NCBI GenBank assembly: GCA_964476895.1
Contig: CAYZCS010000007.1
Span: 1 to 24,000, forward strand
DNA: 24,000 nucleotides
DNA from: an uncultured Candidatus Saccharibacteria bacterium
GTDB lineage: Bacteria > Patescibacteriota > SICC01
Reading direction: 5' to 3'
Of this stretch, positions 1 through 14,094 are shown one piece after another. The notes beneath the pieces are model-generated. The model saw only the letters and a program-made list of their open reading frames with translations. It made no database searches and had not been told where the DNA came from. Position 1 is the stretch's first letter. Each line of letters begins with the position of its first letter. The position numbers and the translations under genes are program-made.

Positions 1-1
1 T

Positions 2-472
2 CGCCATTTCGGAACGATCTCGTTCCTGAGCCTCTTCGCCATCCCGTTCTCGGTGGGGGCGCTGCGTAAACGTTCCGTGCGCGCCGGGCTGGGAACGGCG
101 TTTTGGGCCGGGCCGGTACGGTTGGCGCTTACCCAACACATCACCTGGTCGGTGAACTCGGTCTGCCATGTGTTCGGCAGCCGTCCGTTCGGAATCAACC
201 GGAAGACCGGGCGGAGCACCAACAACTGGGTGGTCGGCCTGCTGGCCTGGGGAGAGGGATGGCATCATAACCATCACCAGGATTCCCGGTCCGCTCGGCA
301 CGGCATATTTCCCGGTCAGTTCGACCTCTCGTGGCGCGTCATCAAGGCGTTCGAGAAACTCGGATTCGTCTGGGACGTACAGGAGCCAAGCCAGGGGCAA
401 ATCCGGCACTGGTTGGCTGAAGCTTCGGCCACCGAGGATGCCCGGCAGCTCTCCGGAACATCCGCCGCCTAG
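2..472 (+). CDS. Acyl-CoA (stearoyl-CoA-type) fatty acid desaturase, C-terminal part; 5' end lies outside the window
   Basis: The frame is open from the window edge. The third histidine box of membrane desaturases is present (GEGWHHNHH...). Confidence 0.8.
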   Translation, partial: RHFGTISFLSLFAIPFSVGALRKRSVRAGLGTAFWAGPVRLALTQHITWSVNSVCHVFGSRPFGINRKTGRSTNNWVVGLLAWGEGWHHNHHQDSRSARHGIFPGQFDLSWRVIKAFEKLGFVWDVQEPSQGQIRHWLAEASATEDARQLSGTSAA

Positions 473-484
473 TCGACCTGTCAT

Positions 485-539
485 AAGGCCCGGAAGGTGT
501 CTGCACATGCAGTCATACCTTCCGGGCCTTTATTCTTTT
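485..539 (+). terminator. Rho-independent terminator after the desaturase gene
   Basis: Perfect 13-bp stem, AAGGCCCGGAAGG (485-497) with CCTTCCGGGCCTT (518-530), followed by TATTCTTTT. Confidence 0.7.
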
Positions 540-552
540 CGAACGGTTCCGG

Positions 553-626
553 TGGGCAATGCTGGACTCGAACCAGCGACCTCCGCAATGTGAATGCGGC
601 GCTCTAGCCGACTGAGCTAATTGCCC
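553..626 (-). tRNA. tRNA-Val (anticodon CAC)
   Basis: The reverse complement folds as a 74-nt cloverleaf: GGGCAAT-TA-GCTC-AGTCGGCTA-GAGC-G-CCGCA-TTCACAT-TGCGG-AGGTC-GCTGG-TTCGAGT-CCAGC-ATTGCCC-A. The T-loop is GTTCGAGT. Only CC of the CCA end is encoded. Confidence 0.95.
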
Positions 627-676
627 GAGGTGCGACGAACCTCATTATTATACCCGGCAGCTTCTTCGGGCCCAGG

Positions 677-1258
677 TCAATCGAGGAACGTGGCGTAGAA
701 CGTCTTGCCGGCCTCCGACAGCGTCAGCCGGATCGTGTCGGGATGGTGCCACCAGGAACGCCGGGCCCAACGGCTGTCCGTCGCCGGATAGGTCAGGAAC
801 GAGACCTGATCACCGAACGTATCCTCGAACGTCACCTTCACCCGGCGGGCGTGGTAGGGCGACGTGACCAGGATCGCGGAACGGATGTTCTGCGCTTCGA
901 ACGTCGGCTTCAGGAACTCGGCATTCTCTTTCGTCGTGCTCGACTGCTCCTCGATGATCGTCGCGGATCGGGGCACCCCGGATTCGATCGCCAGTTGCTG
1001 CATCACCCTGGCGTTCGAGGTCCCGCGGTCCGCCGCGGCGCCGGAGAAGATCAGTTGCGGCGCCAGTTCCCGGTGCCATAACGAGATACCGGTCTCCGCC
1101 CGCGACTCCGTTTCTCCGCCGGACACCACGACGATCGCGTCAGTCTTCCGCAGCTCGTCACGCGGCGCGATGAACCAGCCCAGCCCGATCGTCGCCAGCA
1201 TGACCGTGGCGACGAATACGACGAGTATCAACGTAATTCGGCGCAACCAGCGGTTCAT
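677..1258 (-). CDS. DUF218 / YdcF-ElyC-SanA family membrane-anchored protein
   Basis: N-terminal TM helix, then VVVSGG...SSTTKENA...LVTSPYHARR, which is typical of DUF218. ATGA overlap with the upstream gene. Confidence 0.8.
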   Translation of the reverse strand: MNRWLRRITLILVVFVATVMLATIGLGWFIAPRDELRKTDAIVVVSGGETESRAETGISLWHRELAPQLIFSGAAADRGTSNARVMQQLAIESGVPRSATIIEEQSSTTKENAEFLKPTFEAQNIRSAILVTSPYHARRVKVTFEDTFGDQVSFLTYPATDSRWARRSWWHHPDTIRLTLSEAGKTFYATFLD

Positions 1259-1653
1259 ATACGGAACGTCCAGAACTTGTTACCGGCGAAGTTCGAGAGC
1301 ACGACCAGGCCGTTGGCGATCACCTGCGCGGGAAATGCGTGCAGTCCGACGACCTCGACCAGGAGCACCAGTCCGGCCAGGTTGAGCGAGAGTCCGATCG
1401 TCTGGACCGTCGCGAACTTGGCGAGCTTCCGGACGCGGTGTACCCCTGCCCGGAACGTCCAGATCCGGTTCAGCGTGTAGCTGTTCAGCGTAGCGACGAC
1501 GAAGGCGATGATCGCCGCGACGATGTAGAAGACGCCGAACCAGAGCAGGGCACCGTACACCGCGAAGTTGATGGCGGTGGTCATCAGGCCGACCAGTACG
1601 AATTTCACGAACTGGCGGGCGTGTCGGTCCTGGGTCAGCATGGCGATGTTCAT
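1255..1653 (-). CDS. GtrA family membrane protein
   Basis: 132 aa with 4 TM segments. FVKFVLVG..TTAINF start and NKFWTFR C-terminal motif. Confidence 0.8.
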   Translation of the reverse strand: MNIAMLTQDRHARQFVKFVLVGLMTTAINFAVYGALLWFGVFYIVAAIIAFVVATLNSYTLNRIWTFRAGVHRVRKLAKFATVQTIGLSLNLAGLVLLVEVVGLHAFPAQVIANGLVVLSNFAGNKFWTFRI

Positions 1654-1655
1654 GG

Positions 1656-2165
1656 TTACGGCGCGGTTTCCGGCTCGAATTCGGCCGGCCGAACCTTTCC
1701 ATCATATCGCACGACGACCCGCTTCCGTTCGAACCGGAGCACCGCCTCGCGGGGAAGGATCAGCTCCCGCGCCGCGGGGCGCCATAGCGGCGGTACGATA
1801 TGTAATTTCACGAGGAAGTGCCCCTCGGTTTCGATCGTACATTCCTTGACCCGTCCCAGCCGCTTACCGGACTCTGAGACCGCGACAGTGCCGAGCAGCC
1901 GCATCGGTCGTTCGAGCAGCGGCTTGATCGCCGGCAGGTCGTCGGCGGCCTGTGCGACATCCGCACCACTGGCACCGACCGCGCCCTCAAGATACGAGGA
2001 AACGTCCACGGTCGAGAGCAGGTGCTTCGGCCGTTCCTTCAGACGGTATGCCACGATCTTGCCCCGTGCGGCATCGAAGACCGGCCCGTCGATCGTGCCG
2101 AGCGGCGTACCGTCCGGCATCGCGATGACCGGCCGTCCGATGATCTCGGTAAGCAGGAGCAGCAT
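1656..2165 (-). CDS. PRC-barrel domain protein
   Basis: Two PRC-barrel-like halves (EIIGRPVIAMPDGTPLGTIDGPVFD... and LLGTVAVSESGKRLGRVKECTIE). The start was chosen at the internal ATG at 2165 because the longer ORF would overlap tlyA. Confidence 0.6.
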   Translation of the reverse strand: MLLLLTEIIGRPVIAMPDGTPLGTIDGPVFDAARGKIVAYRLKERPKHLLSTVDVSSYLEGAVGASGADVAQAADDLPAIKPLLERPMRLLGTVAVSESGKRLGRVKECTIETEGHFLVKLHIVPPLWRPAARELILPREAVLRFERKRVVVRYDGKVRPAEFEPETAP

Positions 2166-2208
2166 GCCCTTATTGTATCGGTTACGGCAGCCGGGGCAGC
2201 CATCCGGA

Positions 2209-2943
2209 TCAGGATCCGGCCGGTGTCGCCAACCGGAGCAGTTGCTCCCGGTTTCCCTTGGTGCCCCTGACCGGAGACGGCATAGTCTCCTCGACCGTCC
2301 AGCCATGCTTCGACAACCACGCCGTCAGGTCTCCGAGTGCGGTCATGATCGTGTCCGGATTCCTGATCACGCCCTTGCCGCGGCTGGCCTCCGCACGGCC
2401 GACCTCGAATTGCGGTTTGAAAAGGGCGACTACCGGGCTTTCCGGCGGCAGCAGGGCGGCGGTGGCCGGCAGCACGTCGCGAAGGCCGATGAAACTGACG
2501 TCGATGACCGCCAGGTCCGCCGCCTCCGGCAGCTCCCGGAGATTCCGGATGTCGGTCTCTTCCAGCACGGTCACGCGGGGGTCTTTCCGGAGCTTCCAGT
2601 CGAGTTGCCCGGTACCCACATCCACGGCCACGACCTTCCGGGCGCCGCGCTCGAGTGCCAACTGGGTGAAACCGCCGGTCGAAGCACCGACATCGAGCAC
2701 GACGCGTCCTTCGATCCCGATCGGCCAAGCGTCCAGGGCGGCGGCCAACTTGCCGGCCGCACGGCTCACGTACGGACGTTTTTCGTCACTGGCCACGGGT
2801 GCCGTCTCGTCGACGGGCTGGCCGGGCTTATGGACCGGTGCATCACCGACCCTCACGGTACCGGCCATGATCAACGCCTGGGCCTTGGTGCGGCTGACGC
2901 CGAGCGCGTCCGCGACGTGTGCATCGGCTCGGCGCTTCTTCAT
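2209..2943 (-). CDS. tlyA: TlyA family rRNA (cytidine-2'-O)-methyltransferase
   Basis: N-terminal S4-like RNA-binding segment (SRTKAQALIMAGTVRV), followed by an FtsJ-type SAM methyltransferase (VLDVGASTGGFT). Confidence 0.85.
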   Translation of the reverse strand: MKKRRADAHVADALGVSRTKAQALIMAGTVRVGDAPVHKPGQPVDETAPVASDEKRPYVSRAAGKLAAALDAWPIGIEGRVVLDVGASTGGFTQLALERGARKVVAVDVGTGQLDWKLRKDPRVTVLEETDIRNLRELPEAADLAVIDVSFIGLRDVLPATAALLPPESPVVALFKPQFEVGRAEASRGKGVIRNPDTIMTALGDLTAWLSKHGWTVEETMPSPVRGTKGNREQLLRLATPAGS

Positions 2944-4331
2944 CGGCGGGAAACGGGGACGGTATCGGACACGCCGGCCTTGAGTTTCTGGGTATCACCG
3001 CTTCCCAGTTCGACCGAGAACAGCGCCCGGCCACGGTCGTCATCCGCGATCACCAGGACGTGCCCGTAATCCCGATCCCATCCGGCGAGGACGGGGTTCT
3101 TGAGCGAGCCGAAGGTCTTCACCGTACCGTCCTTGAAAAGCGCGAGGGCCGGCTTGCTGCCCCGCACCAGCACCGTCGCGTCAGACTCCCGATTCAGGAG
3201 GTAGGAATGGGTCGGCTGTGTCTGGGTGAAGCTCTGTTCCTCATCGTTCTCCAGCGTCCGGATGACCAGCAGCGCGCCGCCGCGGTCCTGCGCGCGGAGG
3301 AAGTTCAGCCGGGAGCCGTCCAGGGAAAGGGAGGCGTCGTACTCGTTACGTGGCGTGTTCACGACGGCTTTCGTCCCGCCGGTGATCGCGTTGGCGACGT
3401 GGATGTCGTGATTACCTTCCGCGACCTCGATCTGGAAATAGAGCGTGACCCCATCCGGCGCCCAGACCAGCCCGCCGGGACCTTCCGGCGTCGCAACCCG
3501 CTGCACGTCGCCGCTCGTGGTGTCGGCGACGAAGATAGACCGCTCGGCCGGGATCGCCAGGCGTTTCCCGTCCGGCGACCAGGCCGCCGGCCAAGTACCG
3601 GGGAGGTTCGAGGCGATGGTCGCGACTTCCCGGGTCGCGATGTCCACGACCTTCAGCTTGGAGCGATTCCGCGTCTCATCGGAAGCGCCTTCCTCGTTGG
3701 AATAGAAGGCGATCTTCTGGGTGGCACTGGAGAACGCCACTCCGTAATCGTCGAAGACGGAACTGACGAGCTGGTCGTCCCGGTCACGTTCGACGGAACG
3801 GAGGTAGATCTGTCGCTTGCCGATGTCGCCCTTGGCGTACGCGACGGCGAACTCCCGGGTTTCCGGCGCCGGGGCGTCGGGAAGCGGTTCGAAGGACGGC
3901 AGCGGCTCGGGAGCCGGCGTAGCCGACGGCAGGGCGGTCGGGACCGACCGTAACGATTCGCTCTCCGCCGTCGCGGCGGGTGACGGGTACTGGATGGATT
4001 CCGGCGGCGCCAGCTGGGCGACCGGTCCGAGCCGGTTCCGAAGGTCGGTCCGGCCGGCCGGTGACGGCTCGGGAGTCTGCTCCCTGATCCGGACGGTGAG
4101 CACGCCGACGTCCACGTTGGCCGTGGCCAGCGGCCGGGCACGCTGTCCGAACCGTTCGTTCGAGAGGCCGCGCGGCGTCTCGGTGCTCTCCGGCGCAGGG
4201 GTCGGTGTCGGCACCGGTTCCGGCTGGCGGTCGCGCAGGTAGAGGATGCCGGCGATAATCGCCGCCAGCACCAAAGCGGCCAGTATCCCGTACGTGACTT
4301 TCTTCCAGCGCGGTAATTCTCTGTGTGTCAT
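2940..4331 (-). CDS. Membrane-anchored TolB-like beta-propeller (PD40 repeat) protein
   Basis: N-terminal TM helix, a Pro/Thr/Ala/Glu-rich linker, then repeated SPDG/APDG-type PD40 motifs (AAWSPDGKRLAI, VWAPDGVTLYF, SLSLDGSRLNF). ATGA overlap with tlyA. Confidence 0.6.
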   Translation of the reverse strand: MTHRELPRWKKVTYGILAALVLAAIIAGILYLRDRQPEPVPTPTPAPESTETPRGLSNERFGQRARPLATANVDVGVLTVRIREQTPEPSPAGRTDLRNRLGPVAQLAPPESIQYPSPAATAESESLRSVPTALPSATPAPEPLPSFEPLPDAPAPETREFAVAYAKGDIGKRQIYLRSVERDRDDQLVSSVFDDYGVAFSSATQKIAFYSNEEGASDETRNRSKLKVVDIATREVATIASNLPGTWPAAWSPDGKRLAIPAERSIFVADTTSGDVQRVATPEGPGGLVWAPDGVTLYFQIEVAEGNHDIHVANAITGGTKAVVNTPRNEYDASLSLDGSRLNFLRAQDRGGALLVIRTLENDEEQSFTQTQPTHSYLLNRESDATVLVRGSKPALALFKDGTVKTFGSLKNPVLAGWDRDYGHVLVIADDDRGRALFSVELGSGDTQKLKAGVSDTVPVSRR

Positions 4332-4396
4332 ATGCCCCTCGCAGGTTCATTCTACGCGGGAGCGGCCCGGACTACACGCGTTGGCAGCCGGTCCCG

Positions 4397-4954
4397 TTAC
4401 GCGCGTTCGACGTAGGTGCCGGTGCGGGTGTCGACGCGGATCCGGTCGCCCGGCTGTACGAAGAGCGGGACGTTCACGACGGCGCCGGTCTCGAGCGTCG
4501 CCGGCTTCGAGCCGCCGCTGGCCGTGTCGCCCTTCAGGCCCGGATCGGTTTCCGTTACCGTGAACGCCGCCTTGATCGGCAGCTCCACGCCGATCACCGA
4601 ATCGCCGTGGACGAGCAGTTCCGTATCCATGCCCTCGGTGAGGAACTCGGCCTGCTTGCCGAGCGTCTCGGCCGGCACGGCGTGTTGCTCGTAAGAGCCG
4701 GTATCCATGAAGGTCAGCGTGTCGCCCTGGCGGAAGAGGAACTGTCCGGCCCGGGTGGAGAGTGCGGCCGGCTTCACCTTTTCGCTTCCTTGGAACGTCT
4801 TCTGGAGCGTCGCGCCGGTCTTCAGGTTCTTGAGCTTGGTCCGGACGATCGCCCCGCCACGTCCCATCTTGGAATGCTGGTATGACAGCACCACGTACGG
4901 CTCGCCGTCGAGTTCGATCTTGGTATTCGTCTTAAGATCGGTGATTCCGAGCAT
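4397..4954 (-). CDS. efp: Translation elongation factor P
   Basis: Full-length similarity to EF-P (...DPGLKGDTASGGSKPATLETGAVVNVPLFV...TRTGTYVERA). The start ATG overlaps the rpsR stop (TGATG). Confidence 0.95.
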   Translation of the reverse strand: MLGITDLKTNTKIELDGEPYVVLSYQHSKMGRGGAIVRTKLKNLKTGATLQKTFQGSEKVKPAALSTRAGQFLFRQGDTLTFMDTGSYEQHAVPAETLGKQAEFLTEGMDTELLVHGDSVIGVELPIKAAFTVTETDPGLKGDTASGGSKPATLETGAVVNVPLFVQPGDRIRVDTRTGTYVERA

Positions 4955-5175
4955 CAGCGCGAGGTATACGGCATCAGCGCGGCCAGGCGTGAGCGCTTGA
5001 TCGCCCGCGCGACCATGCGCTGGTGCTTGGCGCAGTTGCCGGAGCGCCGTCGGGAATCGATCTTCCCGTACGGACTCACGAACCGCGACAGCAGCCGGAC
5101 GTCCTTGTAGTCGATGACGTCCAGTCCCTTGCTGCAAAACAAGCAGCGCTTATGCTTTGGTCGTTCGGCCGCCAT
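4954..5175 (-). CDS. rpsR: 30S ribosomal protein S18
   Basis: CLFC...IDYKDV..L.RF....GKI..RR.SG.CAKHQR signature. Confidence 0.95.
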   Translation of the reverse strand: MAAERPKHKRCLFCSKGLDVIDYKDVRLLSRFVSPYGKIDSRRRSGNCAKHQRMVARAIKRSRLAALMPYTSR

Positions 5176-5696
5176 TAGAAGGGAATGTCATCCAGCGACG
5201 GGTCTTCGCCCGATTCGCCCTTATCTTTCTTCTCTCCCTGCTTGCCGCCGTCCTTGCCAGAATCACCCGCCTGCGATGCCTCGGCCTCGGTCGGCTGGGC
5301 CGGGGCTTGGCTGGCCGCCGCGCCGCCTGCCGCCGCGCCACCGCCTTGGCCACCCTGTCCACCGCGCGAATCCAACAGGATCATGTCATCGGCGACGATC
5401 TGCGTCTTCGAACGCTTCGACCCATCCTGGGCTTCCCAGGTGTCCGTCTGTAGCCGTCCCTCGAAGTAGGCGCGCCGGCCCTTGGCGAGGTACTGGTTGC
5501 AGATCTCGGCGAGCTTGCCCCAGACGACGACGTTGTGGAACTCCACCGCTTCTTGCGTCTCACCCTGTTGGTTCTTCCATTGGCGGTTGGTCGCGACGCC
5601 GAAGTTCGCCACCTGCTGCCCGTTCGGGGTGCTGCGCAGCTCGGGGTCCCGTGTCAGGTTCCCGATGATCATCGCCTTGTTGAGATCTTTGGCCAT
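5175..5696 (-). CDS. ssb: Single-stranded DNA-binding protein
   Basis: OB-fold N-terminus (LNKAMIIGNLTRDPELR), a Gly/Ala/Gln-rich linker and an acidic DDIPF tail. GGAGG Shine-Dalgarno upstream. Confidence 0.95.
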   Translation of the reverse strand: MAKDLNKAMIIGNLTRDPELRSTPNGQQVANFGVATNRQWKNQQGETQEAVEFHNVVVWGKLAEICNQYLAKGRRAYFEGRLQTDTWEAQDGSKRSKTQIVADDMILLDSRGGQGGQGGGAAAGGAAASQAPAQPTEAEASQAGDSGKDGGKQGEKKDKGESGEDPSLDDIPF

Positions 5697-5711
5697 GGTG
5701 CCTCCGATTAA

Positions 5712-6248
5712 TTAATCCTTTTGATCCTTGAGTTGCGCTTCGAGCGCGGCTTCAAGTTCCTGCTTGGTCGCCGCTTTCTTGGCAGGCTTTCGCTCCGTGG
5801 TTTCTGCATCCTTGCCTGTGTCGGCAGGGGCGTCCTGCTTCGCGGCCGGTTTCGCCGAAGACTTGGCGGTCTTCCGCATCTCTTCAGGCACTTTCACCTT
5901 GGCGGCCTCCTTGCTTTCCTCGACGGCCGTCGTCACCTGGGTGATTTGTCCCGGCTCGGGGACCTCTTCGGCGACCAGGAGCACGGTGCGGACGATCTCG
6001 TCCATCACGTTCAGTCGCCGGGTGAGTTCGTTCACCTGGTCGGCCGGGAGTTCGCAGTGGAGGAGCGTGTACCAACCGTGATCCTGCTTGGCGATGTCGT
6101 AGGCGAGCTTGCGGCGGCCGAGCGCGTTTTGCTCTTTGGCCTTGCCGCCGAGTTCGAGCAGCATGGCGCCGACCGCATCGGCGACCTTGGCGGCCTCCTG
6201 TTCGGTCTTATCACCGGCGACAATGAAGAGTAGTTCGTACGTTCTCAT
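5712..6248 (-). CDS. rpsF: 30S ribosomal protein S6 with a long Lys/Ala/Glu-rich C-terminal tail
   Basis: MRTYELLFIV...GRRKLAYDI....GWY core, followed by a tail of about 80 aa of low complexity. Confidence 0.9.
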   Translation of the reverse strand: MRTYELLFIVAGDKTEQEAAKVADAVGAMLLELGGKAKEQNALGRRKLAYDIAKQDHGWYTLLHCELPADQVNELTRRLNVMDEIVRTVLLVAEEVPEPGQITQVTTAVEESKEAAKVKVPEEMRKTAKSSAKPAAKQDAPADTGKDAETTERKPAKKAATKQELEAALEAQLKDQKD

Positions 6249-6300
6249 GCTTCTCGTGGACTATCGTCCCGGTTGCCCGGGAGAAAAGCTCGTAGCTCTG

Positions 6301-6329
6301 AGTCTACGGTCGCGCTACCGGAGCGTCAA
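6301..6329 (-). promoter_or_regulatory. Candidate sigma70-type promoter of the rpsF-ssb-rpsR-efp operon
   Basis: The minus strand reads TTGACG (6329-6324), a 17-nt spacer, then TAGACT (6306-6301), about 50 nt upstream of the rpsF ATG. Confidence 0.4.
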
Positions 6330-6367
6330 GGAGCGAAGCATGATTATGGTAGCTTGCTAAGTAGCGT

Positions 6368-7642
6368 TTGTCAAACCCAGCCCGCTCTGCGAAGATAATG
6401 GGCTCCTCGAAGAACCTCCTCATGACTTCCCTCATGGATTCCGAACGCGAGAACGGGTCGAGGCCATTGACGCCCGACCGGCTTCAAGAAGTGGCGGGCG
6501 GGCTGGTGGAACACGAGACGATGGAGCGGGTGCTGGCCGACACGCATTGGGACTACCAACGTCGGGATACGAGCGCCGGAACCGCATACGTGTTCGCCCG
6601 TCCGGTCTCGTTGCTCGAATCGATGCGGATCAACCCGGCGGATTACCAGAACCATCGTCACACACTGGGAATCAGCGAAACGGACGGGGAAATGCGCCTG
6701 ACCTACCTGGTGCTGCGTGACGTGCATTCGAATGAACTCGGCATGCTTCCGAGGATCGAGTCCGCGTTGCGTGGTCGCGGTCGGATCACCCGTCGTGACT
6801 TCTCGGACGACGAGCTGGCGTTCGTCGACCGCATCTGGCTGCCGAGCGCCGAGATCGGCGAAGCCCTGGGAATCAGCACCGGTCACGCAGAGGCGAAGGT
6901 CACGGACATCCTCCGCCCGCGCCGCTTGGCCAACCGAACGGAGCTGCTGACCCTCGGGCTCAAGGAGGGATTCCTGAACCCCGATCTGGAAGCATGGCGC
7001 CGTCCGGTCGGGCTGTCGCCCTTGCAAGCTTCCGTGCTGCGCCGATCACACCTTGAGATAGCGCCCATGGCCCATGAGCTAGGAATAAAGACCAAGTCCG
7101 CCAGTAACGCTCTTGCCCAGTGTTATCGGAAGACCGGGGCCCGGATTCGCAGAGAGCTGATCCTGATCGGGTTGGCCAACGGTCAGTGCTGCTTGGATGA
7201 ACTGCCGACACCGGAAATGGAACCCAAGCTCACCTCCTTAAGACAGGAGATGCTGGCTCTGGTCGACCGATCGTACGAAGCCATTGCGGAGCAGAGCGGA
7301 GATAGCAAGAGTACGATCTCGAACCGGTATGTGCGCCTGTATGAAACGCTCGGACTCTCGAACATGAACGAGCTGGTGGCGTACGCGTTCCGGGAAGGGC
7401 ACATCGACAACCGGATCGATGCCCGTTTGGCGGACGTGTTCTCGCGGCGGCAACGGCAAGTCGTCGAGCGTCTCATGGACGATAATGACGAAATCGCCGC
7501 GTCGCTCGACATCAGTAAGTCCGTGGTCGTGCATCACCTTGTCGAAGCTAAGCGCCGCGCTGAGGTCGATTCGCGGTCCGGGCTCGTTGCGTACGGGCTC
7601 CGGGCGGGACTGATCGATCCGGAAACGGCCAGGCGTGGCTAG
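6368..7642 (+). CDS. Transcriptional regulator with four tandem LuxR/GerE-type HTH modules and an N-terminal domain of unknown function
   Basis: Four units of about 60 aa (aa 145-204, 216-273, 288-346, 358-417). Each follows the pattern L/F-S/T-x-x-x-x-x-h...EIA..LGIS..TV......h..KLG..NR.ELh..h...G.h. The start is uncertain: TTG at 6368 or ATG at 6398. Confidence 0.75.
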   Translation: MSNPARSAKIMGSSKNLLMTSLMDSERENGSRPLTPDRLQEVAGGLVEHETMERVLADTHWDYQRRDTSAGTAYVFARPVSLLESMRINPADYQNHRHTLGISETDGEMRLTYLVLRDVHSNELGMLPRIESALRGRGRITRRDFSDDELAFVDRIWLPSAEIGEALGISTGHAEAKVTDILRPRRLANRTELLTLGLKEGFLNPDLEAWRRPVGLSPLQASVLRRSHLEIAPMAHELGIKTKSASNALAQCYRKTGARIRRELILIGLANGQCCLDELPTPEMEPKLTSLRQEMLALVDRSYEAIAEQSGDSKSTISNRYVRLYETLGLSNMNELVAYAFREGHIDNRIDARLADVFSRRQRQVVERLMDDNDEIAASLDISKSVVVHHLVEAKRRAEVDSRSGLVAYGLRAGLIDPETARRG

Positions 7643-8748
7643 GCCCCGTGCCGGACGTGGATGACGTCGCCGTCCTGCACGATATAGTGCTTGCCTTCGG
7701 CGCGGAGCTTGCCGGTATCGCGCGCGGCTGATTCGCTCCCGGCGGCGATGAAGTCGTCGTAGGCGATGACCTCGGCACGGATGAACTTGGCCTCGAAGTC
7801 ACCGTGGATGGTGCCGGCGGCCCGCGGGGCGCTGCTGCCGCGGCGGACCGGCCAGGCGCGGACCTCCTTCGGTCCGGCGGTGTAGAAGGTAATCAGGTCG
7901 AGCAGGTCATAGCCGGCGCGGATGAAGCGGTTCAGGTTCGGCTCCGCGATCCCGACCGATTCCAAGAACTCCCCACGTTCTTCCGGCGGGAGCGAACCGA
8001 TCTCCGCCTCGATCTTCGCGGACACCGCGACGATGCCGAATCCCTGCTCCTCGGCCCAGCGCTCGGCCTCCTGGTAGAAGGAGCTGGTCCCCGGCTTGGC
8101 CACGTCGTGTTCCCCGACGTTCGCCACCACCAGCATCGGCTTGGCGGTGATGAAGGGGAGCGGGCCACCCTTTGCCAACGTCTTCCGTTCGTCGCCGTCG
8201 AAGGTCACGCTGTGCGCCGGTTTCTCGGCGTCGAACGCCGCACCGATCCGCTTGAGCAGCTTCAAGCGCTCGGCGGTATCGGGATTGCCCTTGGCCTCCT
8301 TCTCCAGCGGCCCGATCAGCTTCTCGTACGTCTGCTGGTCGGCGAGGATCAGCTCGAGCAGGACGGTGCGCAGGTCGTCCACCGGACCGAGCCGTCCCGC
8401 CACGTGGGTGACCTGCGGGTCCTCGAAGCAGCGGGCCACCAGCGCGATCGCGCTGGTCTCGCGGATGTGGGCCAGGAACTTGTTGCCGAGGCCCTCGCCC
8501 TTGCTCGCACCGCCGACCAGTCCCGCGATGTCGGTGAACGTCACGGTGGCCGGAACGACCTTTTCCGGCTCCACCAGTTCGGCAAGCTTCGCGAGCCGCG
8601 GATCGGGGACGTCAACCACACCCTCGTTCGGCTCGATCGTGGTGAACGGCCGGTTGGCGCTCTCGGCCTGTGCCCGTTCGAGCAGGGCGTTAAAGAGCGT
8701 GGACTTGCCGACGTTCGGAAGCCCGACGATACCGATGGAGAGGGACAT
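7639..8748 (-). CDS. ychF: Redox-regulated ATPase YchF (Obg-family GTPase/ATPase)
   Basis: GIVGLPNVGKSTLFNALL P-loop, full YchF-length architecture and a TGS-like C-terminus. Confidence 0.95.
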   Translation of the reverse strand: MSLSIGIVGLPNVGKSTLFNALLERAQAESANRPFTTIEPNEGVVDVPDPRLAKLAELVEPEKVVPATVTFTDIAGLVGGASKGEGLGNKFLAHIRETSAIALVARCFEDPQVTHVAGRLGPVDDLRTVLLELILADQQTYEKLIGPLEKEAKGNPDTAERLKLLKRIGAAFDAEKPAHSVTFDGDERKTLAKGGPLPFITAKPMLVVANVGEHDVAKPGTSSFYQEAERWAEEQGFGIVAVSAKIEAEIGSLPPEERGEFLESVGIAEPNLNRFIRAGYDLLDLITFYTAGPKEVRAWPVRRGSSAPRAAGTIHGDFEAKFIRAEVIAYDDFIAAGSESAARDTGKLRAEGKHYIVQDGDVIHVRHGA

Positions 8749-8908
8749 GCATTCAGTGTACGTGATGGTTGACTTTTCGCATGGTTAATAGGAATATACC
8801 TAGTCGCACTTTTCCATACAGGGAGGTTCCCGGCGACAAGGCAATCGGAATGCTTTGTCCCCGGGAATCTCACAGGGAGAGCTCCGTGGAGAAAAAGGAG
8901 AAGATCGC

Positions 8909-9901
8909 ATGCGCCACGAGTATGGGTACAGACGGATTTCGACCAGACGGGTCATCGGTTGGATCGGTCTGGGTATCGGGCTGATCCTGTTGATCCTCCT
9001 GCTGTTCGCGTGGCCGTTTAAGAAGGCGCCCGCCGATCAGTGGGCGGTCAGCTACGGCGGCGGCCCGTTCGAGAGCCAGCACTACCAGGGCACGTTCGAG
9101 CCCGGCTCAAACCTCCGGTTCAACGGGTGGTTCGACAAGTGGTTCGAGTATCCGGCGACGCTTCGTTCCTACATCGTCTCGAAGCAAGGCGGTGAGGGCG
9201 ATGTGCCGGGCAGCGACTCGATCCGCGCCACCACCAAGGACCAGGTGGAGGTGGAGTTCGAGATCACCACGAACTTCAAGCTCAACACCAACCTGCTCCG
9301 GAAGTTCCATGAGCAGTTGGGGCTGAAGTTCGAGGCCTGGGAGGACGATGGCTGGAACAAGATGCTTCGGGACTCGTTCCGGCAGCAGCTTGAGAACAGC
9401 CTGCAGTCCATCGTGCGCGAGTTCGACGTCGCCGAGGTCTGGGCCAGTGAGCGAGCGCTCGAGGAGATCCAGGATCGGCTCGGAGTCGAGCTCAATGAGA
9501 AGATCACGTCGCAGCTCGGGGACGAGTACTTCTGCGGACCGACTTTCCAGCACGGGCGAGCGGTCCAGGTACCGGTCAAGGAGCAGGTCGACGGCGAGAT
9601 CGTCACAAGGATGGAGCGAACGGATTGTCCGCCGCTCCAAGTAAAGATCAAGCGTCCGACCATCCCGCAGAAGGTGAAGCGTGCCTTCGAGGCTAACCGG
9701 ACCTCCGAGATCCTGGTGGTTACCAAGGAGAACGAGATCGAGCAGCGCCGGAAGGAGCGGGAGTCGATCAAGCAGCTCCGGAACGTGCTCTCACCGCAGT
9801 ACGTACTCCTCAGGGCCATCGAGGAGGGCAAGATCGACTTCTGGGTTCTGCCCGGGAATAACGGTCTCAACCTCCAGACCCCGACGAGAGCGGCTCCATA
9901 G
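8909..9901 (+). CDS. Membrane-anchored SPFH (band 7 / prohibitin-like) domain protein
   Basis: N-terminal TM helix followed by an SPFH-like pattern (..IRATTKDQVEVEFEITTNFKL..). The ATG at 8909 is preceded by an AAGGAG Shine-Dalgarno. The family call is by eye only. Confidence 0.55.
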   Translation: MRHEYGYRRISTRRVIGWIGLGIGLILLILLLFAWPFKKAPADQWAVSYGGGPFESQHYQGTFEPGSNLRFNGWFDKWFEYPATLRSYIVSKQGGEGDVPGSDSIRATTKDQVEVEFEITTNFKLNTNLLRKFHEQLGLKFEAWEDDGWNKMLRDSFRQQLENSLQSIVREFDVAEVWASERALEEIQDRLGVELNEKITSQLGDEYFCGPTFQHGRAVQVPVKEQVDGEIVTRMERTDCPPLQVKIKRPTIPQKVKRAFEANRTSEILVVTKENEIEQRRKERESIKQLRNVLSPQYVLLRAIEEGKIDFWVLPGNNGLNLQTPTRAAP

Positions 9902-10021
9902 CTGAGCGACACTACGGCCCCATAGTCTGGCCTCTCACGAGGTGGCCTGAAACAACAGACGCCAGGGGGATTCCGGCAGGTTAATGCGAGATATCATATC
10001 TCCATTGCCTGCCGCCCCCGA

Positions 10022-10070
10022 CCCTCTCGCATAGCGACTGATGAGACCCGGGAAGTTCGGGTCGAAAGGG
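10022..10070 (+). ncRNA. Hammerhead ribozyme-like element, copy 1 (stems I and II capped, stem III open, i.e. type III topology)
   Basis: CCCUC / UCGC-AUA-GCGA (stem I) / CUGAUGA / GACCCG-GGAAGUU-CGGGUC (stem II) / GAAA / GGG. All invariant core positions are present. The predicted cleavage site is after C10026. Confidence 0.7.
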
Positions 10071-10167
10071 AAGCACGAATGCCGCGTTGGTAGAATACGG
10101 CGCTGGTATGATGTACTTGCTCGCCGTACCTTACCGCAAACAGTCAGACCCGTCGGAAGGAATGTAC

Positions 10168-10524
10168 ATGCAACGACTCTACGACAGTGACGTCATCCGT
10201 TCGATGTCGATGTACTGTGAGGATCCGCTGGTGCGGCTCATGACGCTCGCCATGGTACTGATGGGAGTCACGGTCACGGGCATACTGGTCGCCGTGACCC
10301 CCGATGCAAGCGCCTGGGGTATCCTGGCGCTCTACGTCTTCATCGGCATGCTGATCGTCGCGCCGAAGCACCTGTGGATGCTGTTCACCTACTGCGGCAC
10401 GTTGTTCACAGGGATCATGATCGAGCCACAGGGACCGTTTGTCATGGTGCTTCTGGCGCTGCTCTGCTTTGTCCTCGCGGCATTCGCCCGGAAGCGATTG
10501 CCTGATCAGCGGACCGTCACCTGA
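10168..10524 (+). CDS. Hypothetical integral membrane protein (about 4 TM)
   Basis: Hydrophobic ORF. The ATG at 10168 is preceded by GGAAGGA. The ORF track starts it at TTG 10087, so the start is uncertain. Confidence 0.5.
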   Translation: MQRLYDSDVIRSMSMYCEDPLVRLMTLAMVLMGVTVTGILVAVTPDASAWGILALYVFIGMLIVAPKHLWMLFTYCGTLFTGIMIEPQGPFVMVLLALLCFVLAAFARKRLPDQRTVT

Positions 10525-10592
10525 ACGACCGATAACGGACCTCGAACCCGCGCGCAGTGGTCCGTGTGGCTAACCAGCCATGTCGCGGGAGC

Positions 10593-10630
10593 GGCCATCA
10601 TGTACTTTAGTATCTGGTGGCCTTTTCTTT
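10593..10630 (+). terminator. Rho-independent terminator of the 4-TM protein gene
   Basis: Stem GGCCATCA (10593-10600) with TGGTGGCC (10615-10622), including one G-U pair, followed by TTTTCTTT. Confidence 0.65.
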
Positions 10631-10642
10631 ATGGTCCGGATG

Positions 10643-10671
10643 TTGATTATTTAGCTTAACTGTAGTATAAA
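10643..10671 (+). promoter_or_regulatory. Candidate sigma70-type promoter driving hammerhead copy 2 and the metzincin gene
   Basis: TTGATT (10643-10648), a 17-nt spacer, then TATAAA (10666-10671), within an AT-rich patch of an otherwise GC-rich region. Confidence 0.5.
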
Positions 10672-10702
10672 ATCAAGCTACGGAAACACCGTGACACGGT
10701 CG

Positions 10703-10751
10703 CCGTCGCGCATAGCGCCTGATGAGACCCGGGAAGATCGGGTCGAAACGG
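10703..10751 (+). ncRNA. Hammerhead ribozyme-like element, copy 2
   Basis: CCGUC / GCGC-AUA-GCGC / CUGAUGA / GACCCG-GGAAGAU-CGGGUC / GAAA / CGG. The predicted cleavage site is after C10707. It lies about 25 nt downstream of the predicted transcription start. Confidence 0.7.
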
Positions 10752-10759
10752 TATCAACA

Positions 10760-11836
10760 ATGCATAGCGAAGCCAGTCCCAATCACGATTCGCAACCCGA
10801 GTCCACGGTCCTGGACCGCATGCGGTCATCGCGGGTCGTGAAAACCGTCTTGGGTGCCGCGTGTGCGGGCGTGCTCGCGAAATGCAGTGGTCCGTCGGCA
10901 CCACCCGAAATGAACGAAGTCCGCTCACCGCGCGCGGTATTCGAACCGCCCGTTCCGGCTGCTCCCGACCTTCCGTACGTAGCGGAGAGCCGCCCGGTCG
11001 AGTACTACGGCGGCCTGTCAGCGTATCGATCCATGAGGGTCAACAGGATCGGTCGGGAACTGTTCGAAGACGCCAGGATGGCGCGCGGATTCGAGATCGA
11101 ACGGGAGATCGAACAGTGGAACCTGGACCGGATGGGATTTCTACTGGTGCCCGCCGAGCTGCGCGGCCCCCTCGAAGCGTCCGTGGACGCGGAGCTGCGG
11201 ATGGAAGAGTTCTTTCTCAGCAAGGGCCTTCCGCAATATTCCGTGATCGATTACCTGGGCTGGCGGACGAGCGCTGAGATGATCGATGAACCTTTGCCGT
11301 TACCGGAAGTCATGCACGGGCTAAGCCAGCTGGAGCTGGACTATCTGGAAAGCCTGGACCGGGAACGTGAGGCGGCGATGCTCCAGGCGGAGATCATCGC
11401 CGAGGAGATCTACGGACCCACGCCCTTGCCTGCCGATCCGGAAAAGCGGGCTCAGATTCCCACGGTTTCCGTCCGGCTGGAGGGGTCTCCGAAGGTGGAG
11501 CGGGCGGTCAGCGAGGCGCTTGAGCGGTGGCAGGAGCGCGGCTACGACCCTCCGTGCGACGGTGACATCGAGCTCTGGGGCTCCAATCGGCTGTCTCGGC
11601 CGAAAGCGACCGCCCAGGCCCCGTTGTCGCCAAGGTTCGGAGAGCCTTGCTATATCAATTTTCGGGTTGATGAGATTATGCAGAGTTCGGAAGACCATTT
11701 GGCCAACGTTTCCGAGCATGAAATCGGCCACAACTTGGGATTCTGCCACTCGAAACAGGAAGATTCCATCATGTACAGCAAGCGCGAAGAAACAGAAGGA
11801 TGCGAGGTTCCTCACCCGAGTTGGACGGTCGAGTAA
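10760..11836 (+). CDS. Metzincin (matrixin/M10-like) zinc metalloprotease, probably secreted
   Basis: HEIGHNLGFCH matches HExxHxxGxxH, and is followed by an SIMY Met-turn. A signal-peptide-like segment is present (MRSSRVVKTVLGAACAGVLA). The start is ambiguous: ATG 10760 or ATG 10820. GTG 10691 would run through the ribozyme motif. Confidence 0.75.
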   Translation: MHSEASPNHDSQPESTVLDRMRSSRVVKTVLGAACAGVLAKCSGPSAPPEMNEVRSPRAVFEPPVPAAPDLPYVAESRPVEYYGGLSAYRSMRVNRIGRELFEDARMARGFEIEREIEQWNLDRMGFLLVPAELRGPLEASVDAELRMEEFFLSKGLPQYSVIDYLGWRTSAEMIDEPLPLPEVMHGLSQLELDYLESLDREREAAMLQAEIIAEEIYGPTPLPADPEKRAQIPTVSVRLEGSPKVERAVSEALERWQERGYDPPCDGDIELWGSNRLSRPKATAQAPLSPRFGEPCYINFRVDEIMQSSEDHLANVSEHEIGHNLGFCHSKQEDSIMYSKREETEGCEVPHPSWTVE

Positions 11837-11861
11837 GAGGTGGCAATCAGCGGACAGGGAG

Positions 11862-11907
11862 AACGGGCCGGTCTTCATCGAGGTATCGAGGAAGGGTCCG
11901 GCCCGTT
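11862..11907. terminator. Hairpin between convergent genes, possibly a bidirectional terminator
   Basis: Perfect 10-bp stem, AACGGGCCGG (11862-11871) with CCGGCCCGTT (11898-11907). The loop is large and the T-tract is only moderate (TGTAGTTAT). Confidence 0.5.
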
Positions 11908-11911
11908 GTAG

Positions 11912-12193
11912 TTATCGGTCCCGTGGGTCATAACCGTTGTCGTGGTAACGACCGATCGCGCCTCCCAGTGCATGAAAGAAAGGGATGATGTTAAGTACCG
12001 AAACCGCGACGAAAAGACCAATAATGGTGAATCCCAGAATGAACGTCAGCAAGGCGCCGATGTATGTCTCCGGGAAAGCCAGCAGCAGGAGTTCGGCCGC
12101 CGGATAGGTCGCCAGCATGGGCCCGAAGCAGTAGAGACCATTCCGGAGCACCGCACGGTACTCCGGTACGGCGAACAGCGGCAATGAGCGCAT
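11912..12193 (-). CDS. Hypothetical small membrane protein (93 aa, 2-3 TM)
   Basis: ATG preceded by AAAGGAG with 5-nt spacing. Hydrophobic composition. Confidence 0.55.
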   Translation of the reverse strand: MRSLPLFAVPEYRAVLRNGLYCFGPMLATYPAAELLLLAFPETYIGALLTFILGFTIIGLFVAVSVLNIIPFFHALGGAIGRYHDNGYDPRDR

Positions 12194-12262
12194 GAGTGCT
12201 CCTTTGGTCGGGAACGGGACGTGATGTGAATGTGAGCGGCGAACTTATTGTACGCTGAATGC

Positions 12263-12595
12263 ATGGCTTCTTTCGACGACTTCCAGAAGCTCGACATCCG
12301 GGTCGGCGAGATCGTCTCGGCGGAGGAATTCCCGGAGGCGCGAAAGCCCAGCTACAAACTGACGATCGACTTGGGGCCGGGGCCCGGCACCAAGCGGTCG
12401 TGCGCGCAGCTTACGGCAAACTACCCGCGGGAGTCGCTCGCGGGCAAGCGGGTGCTAGCGGTGGTGAACTTCCCGCCGCGGCAGATCGGCCCGGCGGTCT
12501 CGGAGGTACTGACGCTCGGCGTGCCGGACGCGAAGGGCGAGTGCGTCCTGCTCACCCCGGACGCGGACGTGCCGTTGGGTGGGAAAGTGTATTAG
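12263..12595 (+). CDS. csaA: tRNA-binding domain protein (CsaA/YgjH-like)
   Basis: FDDFQKLDIRVGEIV.AE.FPEARKPSYKL.IDLG....RS.AQ...Y....L.G..V..V.NFPPRQIG...SEVL pattern of the EMAP/CsaA OB fold. Confidence 0.8.
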   Translation: MASFDDFQKLDIRVGEIVSAEEFPEARKPSYKLTIDLGPGPGTKRSCAQLTANYPRESLAGKRVLAVVNFPPRQIGPAVSEVLTLGVPDAKGECVLLTPDADVPLGGKVY

Positions 12596-12604
12596 CGGGT
12601 GGGT

Positions 12605-13108
12605 CTAATTAAGCCAGTCTAAGAAACGCTCGACATCCCGTTTTGATTTCAGGTGCACTACTTTTTCCGAATGTTTCGTAAGAAATCTTTGTGTGTTCTT
12701 CAGGCGATCGCCGGCTAGTTGGAACATCGCTTGAAAATGACCGAGGTCGTTCCACCAGTTCAGTTCCGGGTGACGATCTTTCTTGGATATTCTTTTCGCA
12801 TGTCGAATTACACGTCGCCATAGCGGGATATCCAGGAACACGATGATGTCAGCCCGCTCCGCGATCTCGGGTTGCACGCGGCGATACAATCCATCGCTGA
12901 CCCAGATCGGCTTTTTGATGAATTTCGCTACCTCGGCCTCTATCTTTCTTCGGACGCGCTCTTTCTCTTTTTCGCTTTTCGCATTGTGACCGCCCTCCGA
13001 GAACCAAATCCGGTCGATTTCCAGGCGAGGGATCCCGGCATGCCGAGCAATCCGCTTGGCGAGCGTCGTCTTCCCACTCGCGCTAAGGCCGAGGATAGAG
13101 ATCCTCAT
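12605..13108 (-). CDS. P-loop NTPase / adenylate-kinase-like protein (topology modulation FlaR-like)
   Basis: MRISILGLSASGKTTLAKRIA Walker A motif in a protein of about 167 aa. GC content is visibly lower than in the neighbouring genes. ATGA overlap with the recombinase gene. Confidence 0.75.
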   Translation of the reverse strand: MRISILGLSASGKTTLAKRIARHAGIPRLEIDRIWFSEGGHNAKSEKEKERVRRKIEAEVAKFIKKPIWVSDGLYRRVQPEIAERADIIVFLDIPLWRRVIRHAKRISKKDRHPELNWWNDLGHFQAMFQLAGDRLKNTQRFLTKHSEKVVHLKSKRDVERFLDWLN

Positions 13109-14094
13109 GACTTCCCATGAAACTTCTTATGCACCTCCCGCAGCTGCGGGTTGGTGACGTGCGTGTAGACCTGCGTGGTCGTGATCGAGGCGTGGCCGAG
13201 CATCTGCTGCACGCTCCGGATGTCGGCACCGCTGCGGAGCAGGCCCGTCGCGAACGAGTGCCGCAGCGTGTGCGGGGTCACGTCCTTCACCAGGCCCGCC
13301 GCCGTCGTGTACTTCTTCAGGATCCGCTGCACGGACCGCGGCGTGAGCCGGAGGTCCCCGCCGTCAGCTTCGCGGCCTTTCGGCTCGTCTGAACGGGTGA
13401 GGAGCGGCCGCATCGCGGCGCGGCGCTTGCCGAGGTAGGCGGCCAGGTATCCCGCGGCCCGCTCGGAGAGGAAGACGATCCGCGGCTTGTCGCCCTTGCC
13501 GCGCACCATGAACTCGCCGCGTTCGGCGTTCACCTGGTCGGTGTCGAGGGCGCACAGCTCGGACACGCGCAGCCCGGTGGAGTAGAGGAGCTCGAGGATC
13601 GCGCGATCGCGGAGGCTCGTGAACGTGTCCTTGGTACCGGCGGATTCCAGGAGCCGCTCGACTTCCTCGCCGGTCAGGAACTCGACGCTCCGCCGTTCGG
13701 TCTTCCCGAGTTCGATCTTGTCGGCGGAGAGGGTCTTCACGTCCCGCCGCGCCAGGTATTTGAGGAGCGCCCGGATCGCGATCACGTGGTAGTTCTGCGT
13801 GAGCCGCGTAAGTTCGCCGCCGTTCTGGTTCGGCTGGCGGTTCAGCCAGAGCCGGAAGCTCCGGACCGCGTCGATCGTGATGCCCTGCGGCGCGGTCACG
13901 CCGTGCCCCGCGCCCCAGCGCGCGAACCGGCTGAGATAGTGGTCATAATTTCGGAGTGTGAGCCGCGAGAGCTGCCGCTCCACCTCGCAGTATTCGAGGA
14001 ATTGCGTGATGTACTCCGCGAGTTCGGTCTTCGGGCGGGGCGGGGGCTTAACGCCCGGCGCGGGAGTGTGGCCAGATGTCGCTTTTTCTGACAT
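13105..14094 (-). CDS. Tyrosine site-specific recombinase, XerC/XerD type
   Basis: N-terminal SAM-like core-binding domain and C-terminal catalytic motifs (...HTLRHSFATGLLRSGADIRSVQQMLGHASITTTQVYTHV). Confidence 0.9.
   Translation of the reverse strand: MSEKATSGHTPAPGVKPPPRPKTELAEYITQFLEYCEVERQLSRLTLRNYDHYLSRFARWGAGHGVTAPQGITIDAVRSFRLWLNRQPNQNGGELTRLTQNYHVIAIRALLKYLARRDVKTLSADKIELGKTERRSVEFLTGEEVERLLESAGTKDTFTSLRDRAILELLYSTGLRVSELCALDTDQVNAERGEFMVRGKGDKPRIVFLSERAAGYLAAYLGKRRAAMRPLLTRSDEPKGREADGGDLRLTPRSVQRILKKYTTAAGLVKDVTPHTLRHSFATGLLRSGADIRSVQQMLGHASITTTQVYTHVTNPQLREVHKKFHGKS

Follow-up and report, generated by a model that had tools for sequence, protein, structure and literature searches.

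Apart from glmS, the function of self-cleaving ribozymes in bacteria has been called 'largely elusive' (PMC6765202). Several bacterial hammerheads flank small, non-conserved open reading frames (ORFs), and processing of multi-gene transcripts has been proposed for them (PMC3088659, PMC6155905, PMC6765202). Here we describe two hammerheads in the window, by which we mean the whole 24,000-nucleotide stretch of DNA that was analysed. As in the published clusters (Perreault et al. 2011, PMC3088659; de la Pena et al. 2017, PMC6155905), they form a co-oriented pair a few hundred nucleotides apart that brackets a small orphan ORF, and they share with those clusters the strain-variable genes between the copies and a tyrosine recombinase within 2.4 kb. 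The published clusters are mostly type II and mostly in prophages, whereas both copies here are type III and chromosomal, without phage genes around them, and their recombinase is XerC/XerD-like and syntenic. Proteins of the window have cluster-mates that are more than 90% identical in MAGs labelled Patescibacteria group bacterium by NCBI, and we found no report of a hammerhead in Patescibacteria in the literature that we searched. The reading that we favour, and consider probable, is that both copies are type III hammerheads whose cis-cleavage at gene boundaries uncouples neighbouring transcripts.

A pair of type III hammerheads

Copy 1 occupies 10022-10070 (+) and was recognised from its sequence, Rfam, a family covariance model (R1), RNAfold and a motif simulation. 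The 5' strand of stem III (CCCU, 10022-10025, +) is followed by C17 (C10026, +), with cleavage predicted between 10026 and 10027, and then by the stem I hairpin UCGC-AUA-GCGA (10027-10037, +), the core CUGAUGA (C3-A9; 10038-10044, +), stem II with its loop (GACCCG-GGAAGUU-CGGGUC; 10045-10063, +), closed by G10.1-C11.1, the GAA of G12-A14 (10064-10066, +) and, at 10067-10070 (+), A15.1 with the 3' strand of stem III (GGG). A15.1 (10067) pairs with U16.1 (10025) and, together with CCC/GGG, makes a stem III of 4 bp. The initial annotation had laid out the same segments on this strand, including C17, the core, stem II and GAAA, and its layout proved exact at each coordinate. Its statement that every invariant hammerhead position and a CUC cleavage site are present was also borne out, as the core, U16.1-A15.1, G10.1-C11.1 and a C at H17 are all there. 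It had further described stem I as unusually short; stem I does consist of 4 bp and a triloop, but this is just 1 bp below the Rfam type III consensus of 5 bp and a uUa triloop. The topology is that of type III, with stems I and II closed by loops and both ends in stem III. RNAfold returned the three-way junction as both the minimum-energy and the centroid fold, for the element alone and in a 146-nt context.

The second copy lies 681 nt downstream, at 10703-10751 (+). Its segments are CCGU-C, GCGC-AUA-GCGC, CUGAUGA, GACCCG-GGAAGAU-CGGGUC and GAAA-CGG, with cleavage predicted between C10707 and G10708. The two copies differ at five positions. Four of these make up two compensatory pairs: from copy 1 to copy 2, the 1.1-2.1 pair of stem I changes from U-A to G-C and the 16.2-15.2 pair of stem III from C-G to G-C. 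The remaining difference lies in loop II. When copy 2 was folded alone, RNAfold preferred a structure in which part of the core pairs with the 5' strand of stem III. R1, built from the seven family sequences described below, scores 80 bits for copy 1 and 82 bits for copy 2 and finds no third copy in the window. The loose pattern CTGATGA-N8-38-GAAA occurs three times in the window, against 0.27 expected. The full motif, defined as the core, a capped stem II of at least 4 bp, a capped stem I of at least 4 bp, U16.1, a non-G H17 and a stem III of at least 4 bp, was matched at two places in the window and in none of 2000 first-order Markov simulations of it.

The element had been expected to be missed by standard models, and it is. 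A search with the Rfam covariance models, which the initial annotation had proposed, gave, at permissive thresholds, Hammerhead_3 as the best and sole ribozyme match. The scores of 24.8 bits (copy 1) and 33.9 bits (copy 2) fall short of the gathering score, 48.5, so that routine annotation misses both copies. The shortfall is due to the stem lengths, not to the core. At gathering thresholds the sole Rfam match in the window was to tRNA-Val, with the hammerheads unreported; this tRNA-Val (CAC) lies at 551-626 (-). Both a mechanical ORF (10691-11836) and a public gene call, P0005 (Logan SRR12687281, contig L028, 649-1794), translate through copy 2; both start at a GTG upstream of it and reach 381 aa, against 358 aa or fewer. 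This read-through gene call is an annotation artefact from an unrecognised RNA. Contig L028 itself begins inside copy 1, and we considered its start as a possible RNA end; it falls just past the polymorphic N7 base, and we rejected this idea in favour of an assembly break. The wider consequence is that annotation at Rfam thresholds overlooks a compact subfamily and that gene callers read through copy 2.

Family members, covariation and conservation

Through cluster-mate P0003 we reached a syntenic locus on a 638-kb contig of GCA_040902515.1 (L026). By exact look-up, YchF of the window and P0001 led to no contig, and P0017 and P0018 led solely to one that ends before the ribozymes are reached. 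In a blastn comparison, the window and L026 are 91% identical across 1-8749 and show no homology for 8750-10021. Homology restarts with the very first base of copy 1 (10022), where identity is 71%, and goes on at 81% through the metalloprotease-like gene described below. L026 retains both hammerheads at 94-96% identity, within flanks that are 71-81% identical or unalignable. Its copy 1 differs from ours at 2 of 49 positions (A to C in loop I; U to C at N7) and its copy 2 at 3 of 49 (A to C in loop I; C to U in stem II, giving G-U; A to U in loop II). All five differences fall at positions that hammerheads tolerate, namely N7, the loops and a change of G-C to G-U, and at the rate of the flanks (19-29% divergence) each copy should have gathered about 9-14 changes, against the 2 and 3 that are seen. 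Judged by sequence, the RNA structure is under selection, and this low divergence, confined to neutral positions, is the strongest evidence for it. Rfam reported neither L026 copy at E <= 1, and at permissive Rfam thresholds neither 8700-13200 of the window nor the L026 island gave a match to a further class of ribozyme (twister, pistol, hatchet or HDV-like).

To place the pair among other hammerheads, we scanned a genome collection for the stem II pattern and obtained 25 loci. About half are type II hammerheads, and the remainder are type III with a short, capped stem I, in MAGs of Patescibacteria, Saccharibacteria, Microgenomates and Gammaproteobacteria. One of these, in an AT-rich patescibacterial contig (L006), shares its stem I core, stem II and loop II with copy 1 and departs from it in having A-U as its 1.1-2.1 pair and GAUU/AAUC as its stem III. 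A metagenome scan added the L029 and L030 copies. Base pairs were counted in 7 distinct gap-free family members, leaving out the distant type III copies, in which MAFFT misaligned stem I. In these sequences, which come from few lineages and hold few independent covariation events, 98.1% of cells are paired in the hammerhead structure and 5 pairs are changed on both sides. None of 500 shuffles reached the observed percentage paired or the covariation score, and slid partners were 21-50% paired. Pair 1.1-2.1 is seen as GC, UA and AU, and pair 16.2-15.2 as CG, GC and UA. Stem II is almost invariant, with one change of G-C to G-U, and its support comes mainly from complementarity. The core is invariant in 7/7 sequences apart from U or C at N7, the one free core position; U16.1-A15.1 is U-A and G10.1-C11.1 is G-C in 7/7, and H17 is C throughout. 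The hammerhead identity claimed by the initial annotation is thus upheld: the sequence and structure features of type III are complete and are kept, through compensatory or neutral changes, in copy 2, in L026 and on three other contigs.

Conservation is uneven within the element. Stem II and loop II (GACCCG-GGAAGUU-CGGGUC; window 10045-10063), together with the inner part of stem I (CGC-YUA-GCG), are near-invariant across the window, L006, L026, L029 and L030, whereas the copies differ freely in stem III and in the 1.1-2.1 pair that adjoins the cleavage site. The contigs that bear the near-identical stem II differ strongly in GC, and the copies themselves have GC contents of 49% at one end and 60-67% at the other. 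The near-invariance of stem II, loop II and inner stem I points either to recent horizontal spread or to a tertiary role that is sequence-specific. Extended, fast natural hammerheads have a tertiary contact or a pseudoknot between loops I and II. In this family, loop I (AUA, CUA or UUA) has no Watson-Crick complementarity to loop II (GGAAGUU or GGAAGAU), and the conserved UA of loop I, taken with the near-invariant stem II and loop II, hints at constraint beyond pairing. Activity at physiological Mg2+ is uncertain, because stem I (4 bp and a triloop) is shorter than stem II (6-8 bp) and a loop-loop pseudoknot is not evident.

These features also bear on whether the copies are fossil or catalytically feeble hammerhead-like sequences, kept as a DNA repeat, as a recombination or protein-binding site, or as recent copies that have yet to decay. 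Scores under the Rfam threshold would be expected of such remnants, as would short stems I and III and the lack of an identifiable tertiary contact, and the near-identity of stem II and its loop even in AT-rich L006 could reflect recent horizontal spread, not selection. However, whether the two copies or the genomes are compared, each change is compensatory or at a known neutral position, while the flanks diverge by 19-29%, and a site that acts as DNA needs neither complementarity in stems I and III nor 11 invariant core bases. We therefore regard a fossil or DNA-level origin as improbable.

Genes and signals at the ribozyme sites

The copies lie at the edges of genes that change from strain to strain. 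Upstream of copy 1, the window carries an SPFH/Band 7 gene (8855-9901, +; PF01145) that is absent from L026. The spot that holds it, which adjoins ychF, is strain-variable: the SPFH/Band 7 gene lies there in the window (8750-10021), and two unrelated genes (220 and 180 aa) lie there in L026 (6416-8000). Between the two hammerheads there is one gene in the window, against three (121, 105 and 230 aa) in L026. The gene in the window (10168-10524, +) encodes an orphan 118-aa membrane protein with four hydrophobic segments by hydropathy (4-TM). The 4-TM protein is 62% identical to the 121-aa L026 orthologue; it matched no known family, and a search of 5.8 billion clusters returned itself alone. To judge from these comparisons, the 4-TM gene is fast-evolving and lineage-restricted. 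Downstream of copy 2 is an orphan matrixin-like (HExxH) metalloprotease-like gene (10760-11836, +; 358 aa; PF00413, C-terminal motif only), whose annotated ATG is 9 nt beyond the ribozyme and whose only homologues found were itself and the L026 orthologue.

The wider neighbourhood is housekeeping (rpsF-ssb-rpsR-efp, ychF, csaA, uppP, ggt and M16 peptidases). The tyrosine recombinase gene within 2.4 kb of the copies gives a full-length XerC/XerD match and is syntenic in L026 and L075. We considered and rejected a prophage or defence island. PADLOC returned nothing meaningful, and PHROGs found no virus-specific families among the flanking genes, its matches being the recombinase (integrase PHROGs) and the SPFH protein (phrog_200, a generic 'lipoprotein' family). 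An integron-like cassette with the hairpin as attC was also set aside, since the recombinase fits XerC/XerD better than integron integrases. In IMG/VR, 43 contigs share the stem II pattern and nearly all of them carry type II hammerheads; the narrow hammerhead family had no match in IMG/VR, and R1 had no strong match in these 43 viral contigs. Hammerheads that flank small ORFs occur also in L008/L019, L022 and L074. On the Saccharibacteria contig CAZAOA010000002.1, three near-identical type III hammerheads, at 6756-6702 and 5401-5349 (L008, -) and 4452-4398 (L019, -), bracket ORFs of 101-114 aa.

A very stable imperfect hairpin without a U-tract ends 2 nt before copy 1 (9965-10019, +; fold about -34 kcal/mol, z about -5 to -6). 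Strong hairpins end 0-4 nt upstream of 6 of the 7 family copies and, among the type III copies, of 10 out of 22; for random 60-nt windows taken from these loci the count was 6 of 399. This enrichment is real but, the control windows being mostly coding, overstated relative to intergenic DNA. Besides 9965-10019 in the window, hairpins 5' of type III hammerheads lie at 6416-6460 and 4638-4696 in L026 (-), 286-330 in L029 (-), 3765-3819 in L030, 4824-4856 in L006 and 7056-7113 in L010 (-). Possible roles of the upstream hairpin are to cap the 5' product of cleavage, to stack on the short stem III or to insulate the folding. We found no description of such adjacency in PMC3088659, PMC6155905, PMC6765202 or PMC10085705, a non-exhaustive coverage of the literature.

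Signals for transcription appear to separate copy 1 from the gene that follows it. An extended -10-like box, TGGTATGAT (10104-10112, +; proposed -10 hexamer at 10107-10112), is conserved in L026 and may be a promoter; in the alignment with L026, CTGGTATGAT is the sole conserved block between copy 1 and the 4-TM start codon, in divergent surroundings. A Shine-Dalgarno-like GGAAGGA (10155-10161, +) precedes ATG 10168. The mechanical ORF 10087-10524 begins 17 nt past copy 1, but the actual start of the gene is ATG 10168. The initial annotation had placed copy 1 upstream of a 4-TM gene, which is correct as to position; the ribozyme need not, however, be in the mRNA of that gene, as the -10-like box and the Shine-Dalgarno sequence intervene and the start is at 10168.

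Between the 4-TM gene and copy 2, a hairpin (10593-10622) and a U-rich tract resemble an intrinsic terminator (10593-10632, +). They are followed, upstream of copy 2, by a promoter-like TTGATT-17 nt-TATAAA (10643-10671, +), a putative promoter whose -10 element (10666-10671) aligns with TATGAA in L026. Our consensus scan called none of the proposed promoters and terminators; it demands a T at position 6 of the -10 box, and its loop limit of 8 nt accounts for the missed terminator-like hairpin at 10593-10632.

The same signals bear on whether the paired ribozymes excise the RNA between them (10027-10707, 681 nt) for an RtcB-type ligase to close into a circular RNA encoding the 4-TM protein. Co-oriented type III hammerheads do bracket one gene in the window and three in L026, and the predicted 5'-OH and 2',3'-cyclic-phosphate ends are RtcB substrates by established chemistry. 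However, the terminator-like hairpin and U-tract (10593-10632) and the promoter-like boxes lie between the copies, so that a transcript should seldom reach across both. Nor would a ligated junction rebuild a hammerhead, since the stem III strand of copy 2 (CCGU) lacks complementarity to that of copy 1 (AGGG). Perreault et al. detected no circles from bacterial tandem hammerheads (PMC3088659). Circularisation is accordingly the least probable of the explanations considered here, and we give it very little weight.

Other members of the family carry their own signals. In L006, a TTGACT-17-TATACT pair lies downstream of the ribozyme. In L029 (281-200, -) and L030 (3819-3900), an intrinsic terminator (GACGCCUCC...GGAGGCGUUUU) begins 2-3 nt past the ribozyme, and a -10-like GGTACTAT and a uvrD-like helicase gene come after it; self-cleavage at these two loci would free an RNA of about 75-80 nt that consists of ribozyme and terminator. 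The copies in Gammaproteobacteria MAGs are at 5766-5830 in L004, 3070-2980 in L012 (-), 5205-5285 in L014, 5420-5330 in L018 (-) and 6952-6890 in L025 (-), and in four of the five (L004, L012, L014 and L018) the type III hammerhead ends 0-13 nt ahead of an ATG. Shine-Dalgarno-like purine runs are found 5' of the ribozyme in three of them: AGGGGAG in L012, GGAGG overlapping stem III in L014 and AAAGGGG in L018. Because these runs are on the 5' side and the ATG follows within 0-13 nt, the ribozyme in these MAGs seems to sit as an insertion between ribosome-binding site and start codon.

One possible explanation for such layouts is that the ribozymes are mainly 5'-UTR devices for the downstream gene, by the logic of RiboJ or glmS, with any upstream effect incidental. 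Cleavage would then give the 4-TM and metalloprotease-like mRNAs a defined 5'-OH end with a structured cap, and this would adjust how stable they are or how well they are translated. This would suit copy 2, which follows the promoter-like TTGATT-17-TATAAA and stands 9 nt ahead of the annotated ATG, and the gammaproteobacterial ribozymes that end 0-13 nt from an ATG; moreover, both window copies have the orientation of the downstream gene and are conserved with it in L026. It suits copy 1 poorly, given the conserved -10-like box between that copy and its gene, and likewise L006, with a clear -35/-10 pair after the ribozyme, and L029 and L030, with an intrinsic terminator directly after it. With a promoter or terminator in that position, the main downstream mRNA would not contain the ribozyme in any of these four cases. 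We hold it unlikely, on balance, that a 5'-UTR device is the main function.

Proposed role and relation to known systems

Under the reading that we favour, in which cleavage uncouples neighbouring transcripts, we infer that polymerase transcribes through each copy and that the three-way junction then folds. If the RNA is catalytically active, the 2'-OH of C17 (C10026 in copy 1, C10707 in copy 2) would attack the phosphate that follows it, either while the RNA is being transcribed or afterwards. This would leave the upstream RNA with a 2',3'-cyclic phosphate a few nucleotides beyond the stable hairpin, and the downstream RNA would start with a 5'-OH and carry the folded ribozyme body. The products should part because stem III has merely 4-5 bp, and, since the ribozymes sit at gene boundaries, neighbouring genes would be uncoupled both physically and in RNA stability, which is where we would place the selective benefit. 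Copy 1 lies where the SPFH unit meets the 4-TM unit, and copy 2 where the 4-TM unit meets the metalloprotease-like gene. At copy 1, the cut would trim the SPFH transcript or its read-through just past the hairpin, upstream of the 4-TM promoter-like box; that box and the hairpin upstream are the reason to think that copy 1 may act on the 3' end of the upstream transcript or on read-through. At copy 2, the cut would free the metalloprotease-like mRNA of about 30 nt of leader. That all copies share one role is an assumption, as their contexts differ (5' leader, 3' end, before a terminator).

A broader proposal is that a stable hairpin and a compact type III hammerhead, 0-4 nt apart, work as a portable module for RNA 3'-end formation and insulation in Patescibacteria (CPR) and other small genomes. 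In such a module, the ribozyme would cut the nascent RNA shortly beyond the hairpin, in place of intrinsic termination or as a back-up to it, and the hairpin-hammerhead would mark the borders of fast-evolving, strain-variable gene cassettes. We put this forward tentatively, as a long shot; if true, it would give bacterial hammerheads a defined job. With or without it, the locus offers a non-prophage case in which a covarying type III pair stands at gene borders in a strain-variable spot, with orthologues, a recurrent hairpin and legible promoter-like and terminator-like signals, and it predicts hairpin-capped 3' ends with 2',3'-cyclic phosphates and ribozyme-capped 5' ends with 5'-OH.

Compared with Rfam RF00008 (type III, clan CL00010), the copies share the core CUGAUGA ... 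GAAA, A15.1-U16.1, G10.1-C11.1, C at H17 and an open stem III, and their stem I triloop, NUA, resembles the consensus uUa. They differ in stem lengths: 4 against 5 bp in stem I, 4-5 against 7 in stem III and 6-8 against 4 in stem II. In sTRSV-like type III ribozymes stem I is longer than stem II; here the order is reversed, and the usual contact between loop I and loop II may not apply. By sequence this is an ordinary hammerhead, and the locus adds a new case to a bacterial arrangement that is already known but still unexplained in its purpose.

Similar to glmS, the copies would be bacterial cis-cleaving RNAs in an mRNA leader, yielding a 5'-OH product with a defined fate. The glmS fold is, however, unrelated, metabolite-dependent and tied to one gene family, none of which applies here. 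RiboJ, reportedly the work of Lou and colleagues in 2012, is said to be a synthetic insulator in which the sTRSV hammerhead and a hairpin are set between promoter and ribosome-binding site. Copy 2 matches that layout in its promoter-like site, short leader, type III hammerhead and start codon, and its cleavage would remove the promoter-derived leader. Unlike RiboJ, it is natural, has no added 3' hairpin and shows no Shine-Dalgarno sequence between ribozyme and ATG, and copy 1 does not fit the layout. Felletti et al. 2017, as summarised in PMC6765202, used twister ribozymes in engineered reporters, in bacterial 3' UTRs and polycistronic transcripts. As in that system, the ribozyme here comes after a coding region and ahead of a terminator or a further gene, and cleavage is expected to alter transcript ends and stability. 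The difference lies in the stable hairpin directly 5' of the cut: the upstream product here should stay hairpin-capped and not lose its protection.
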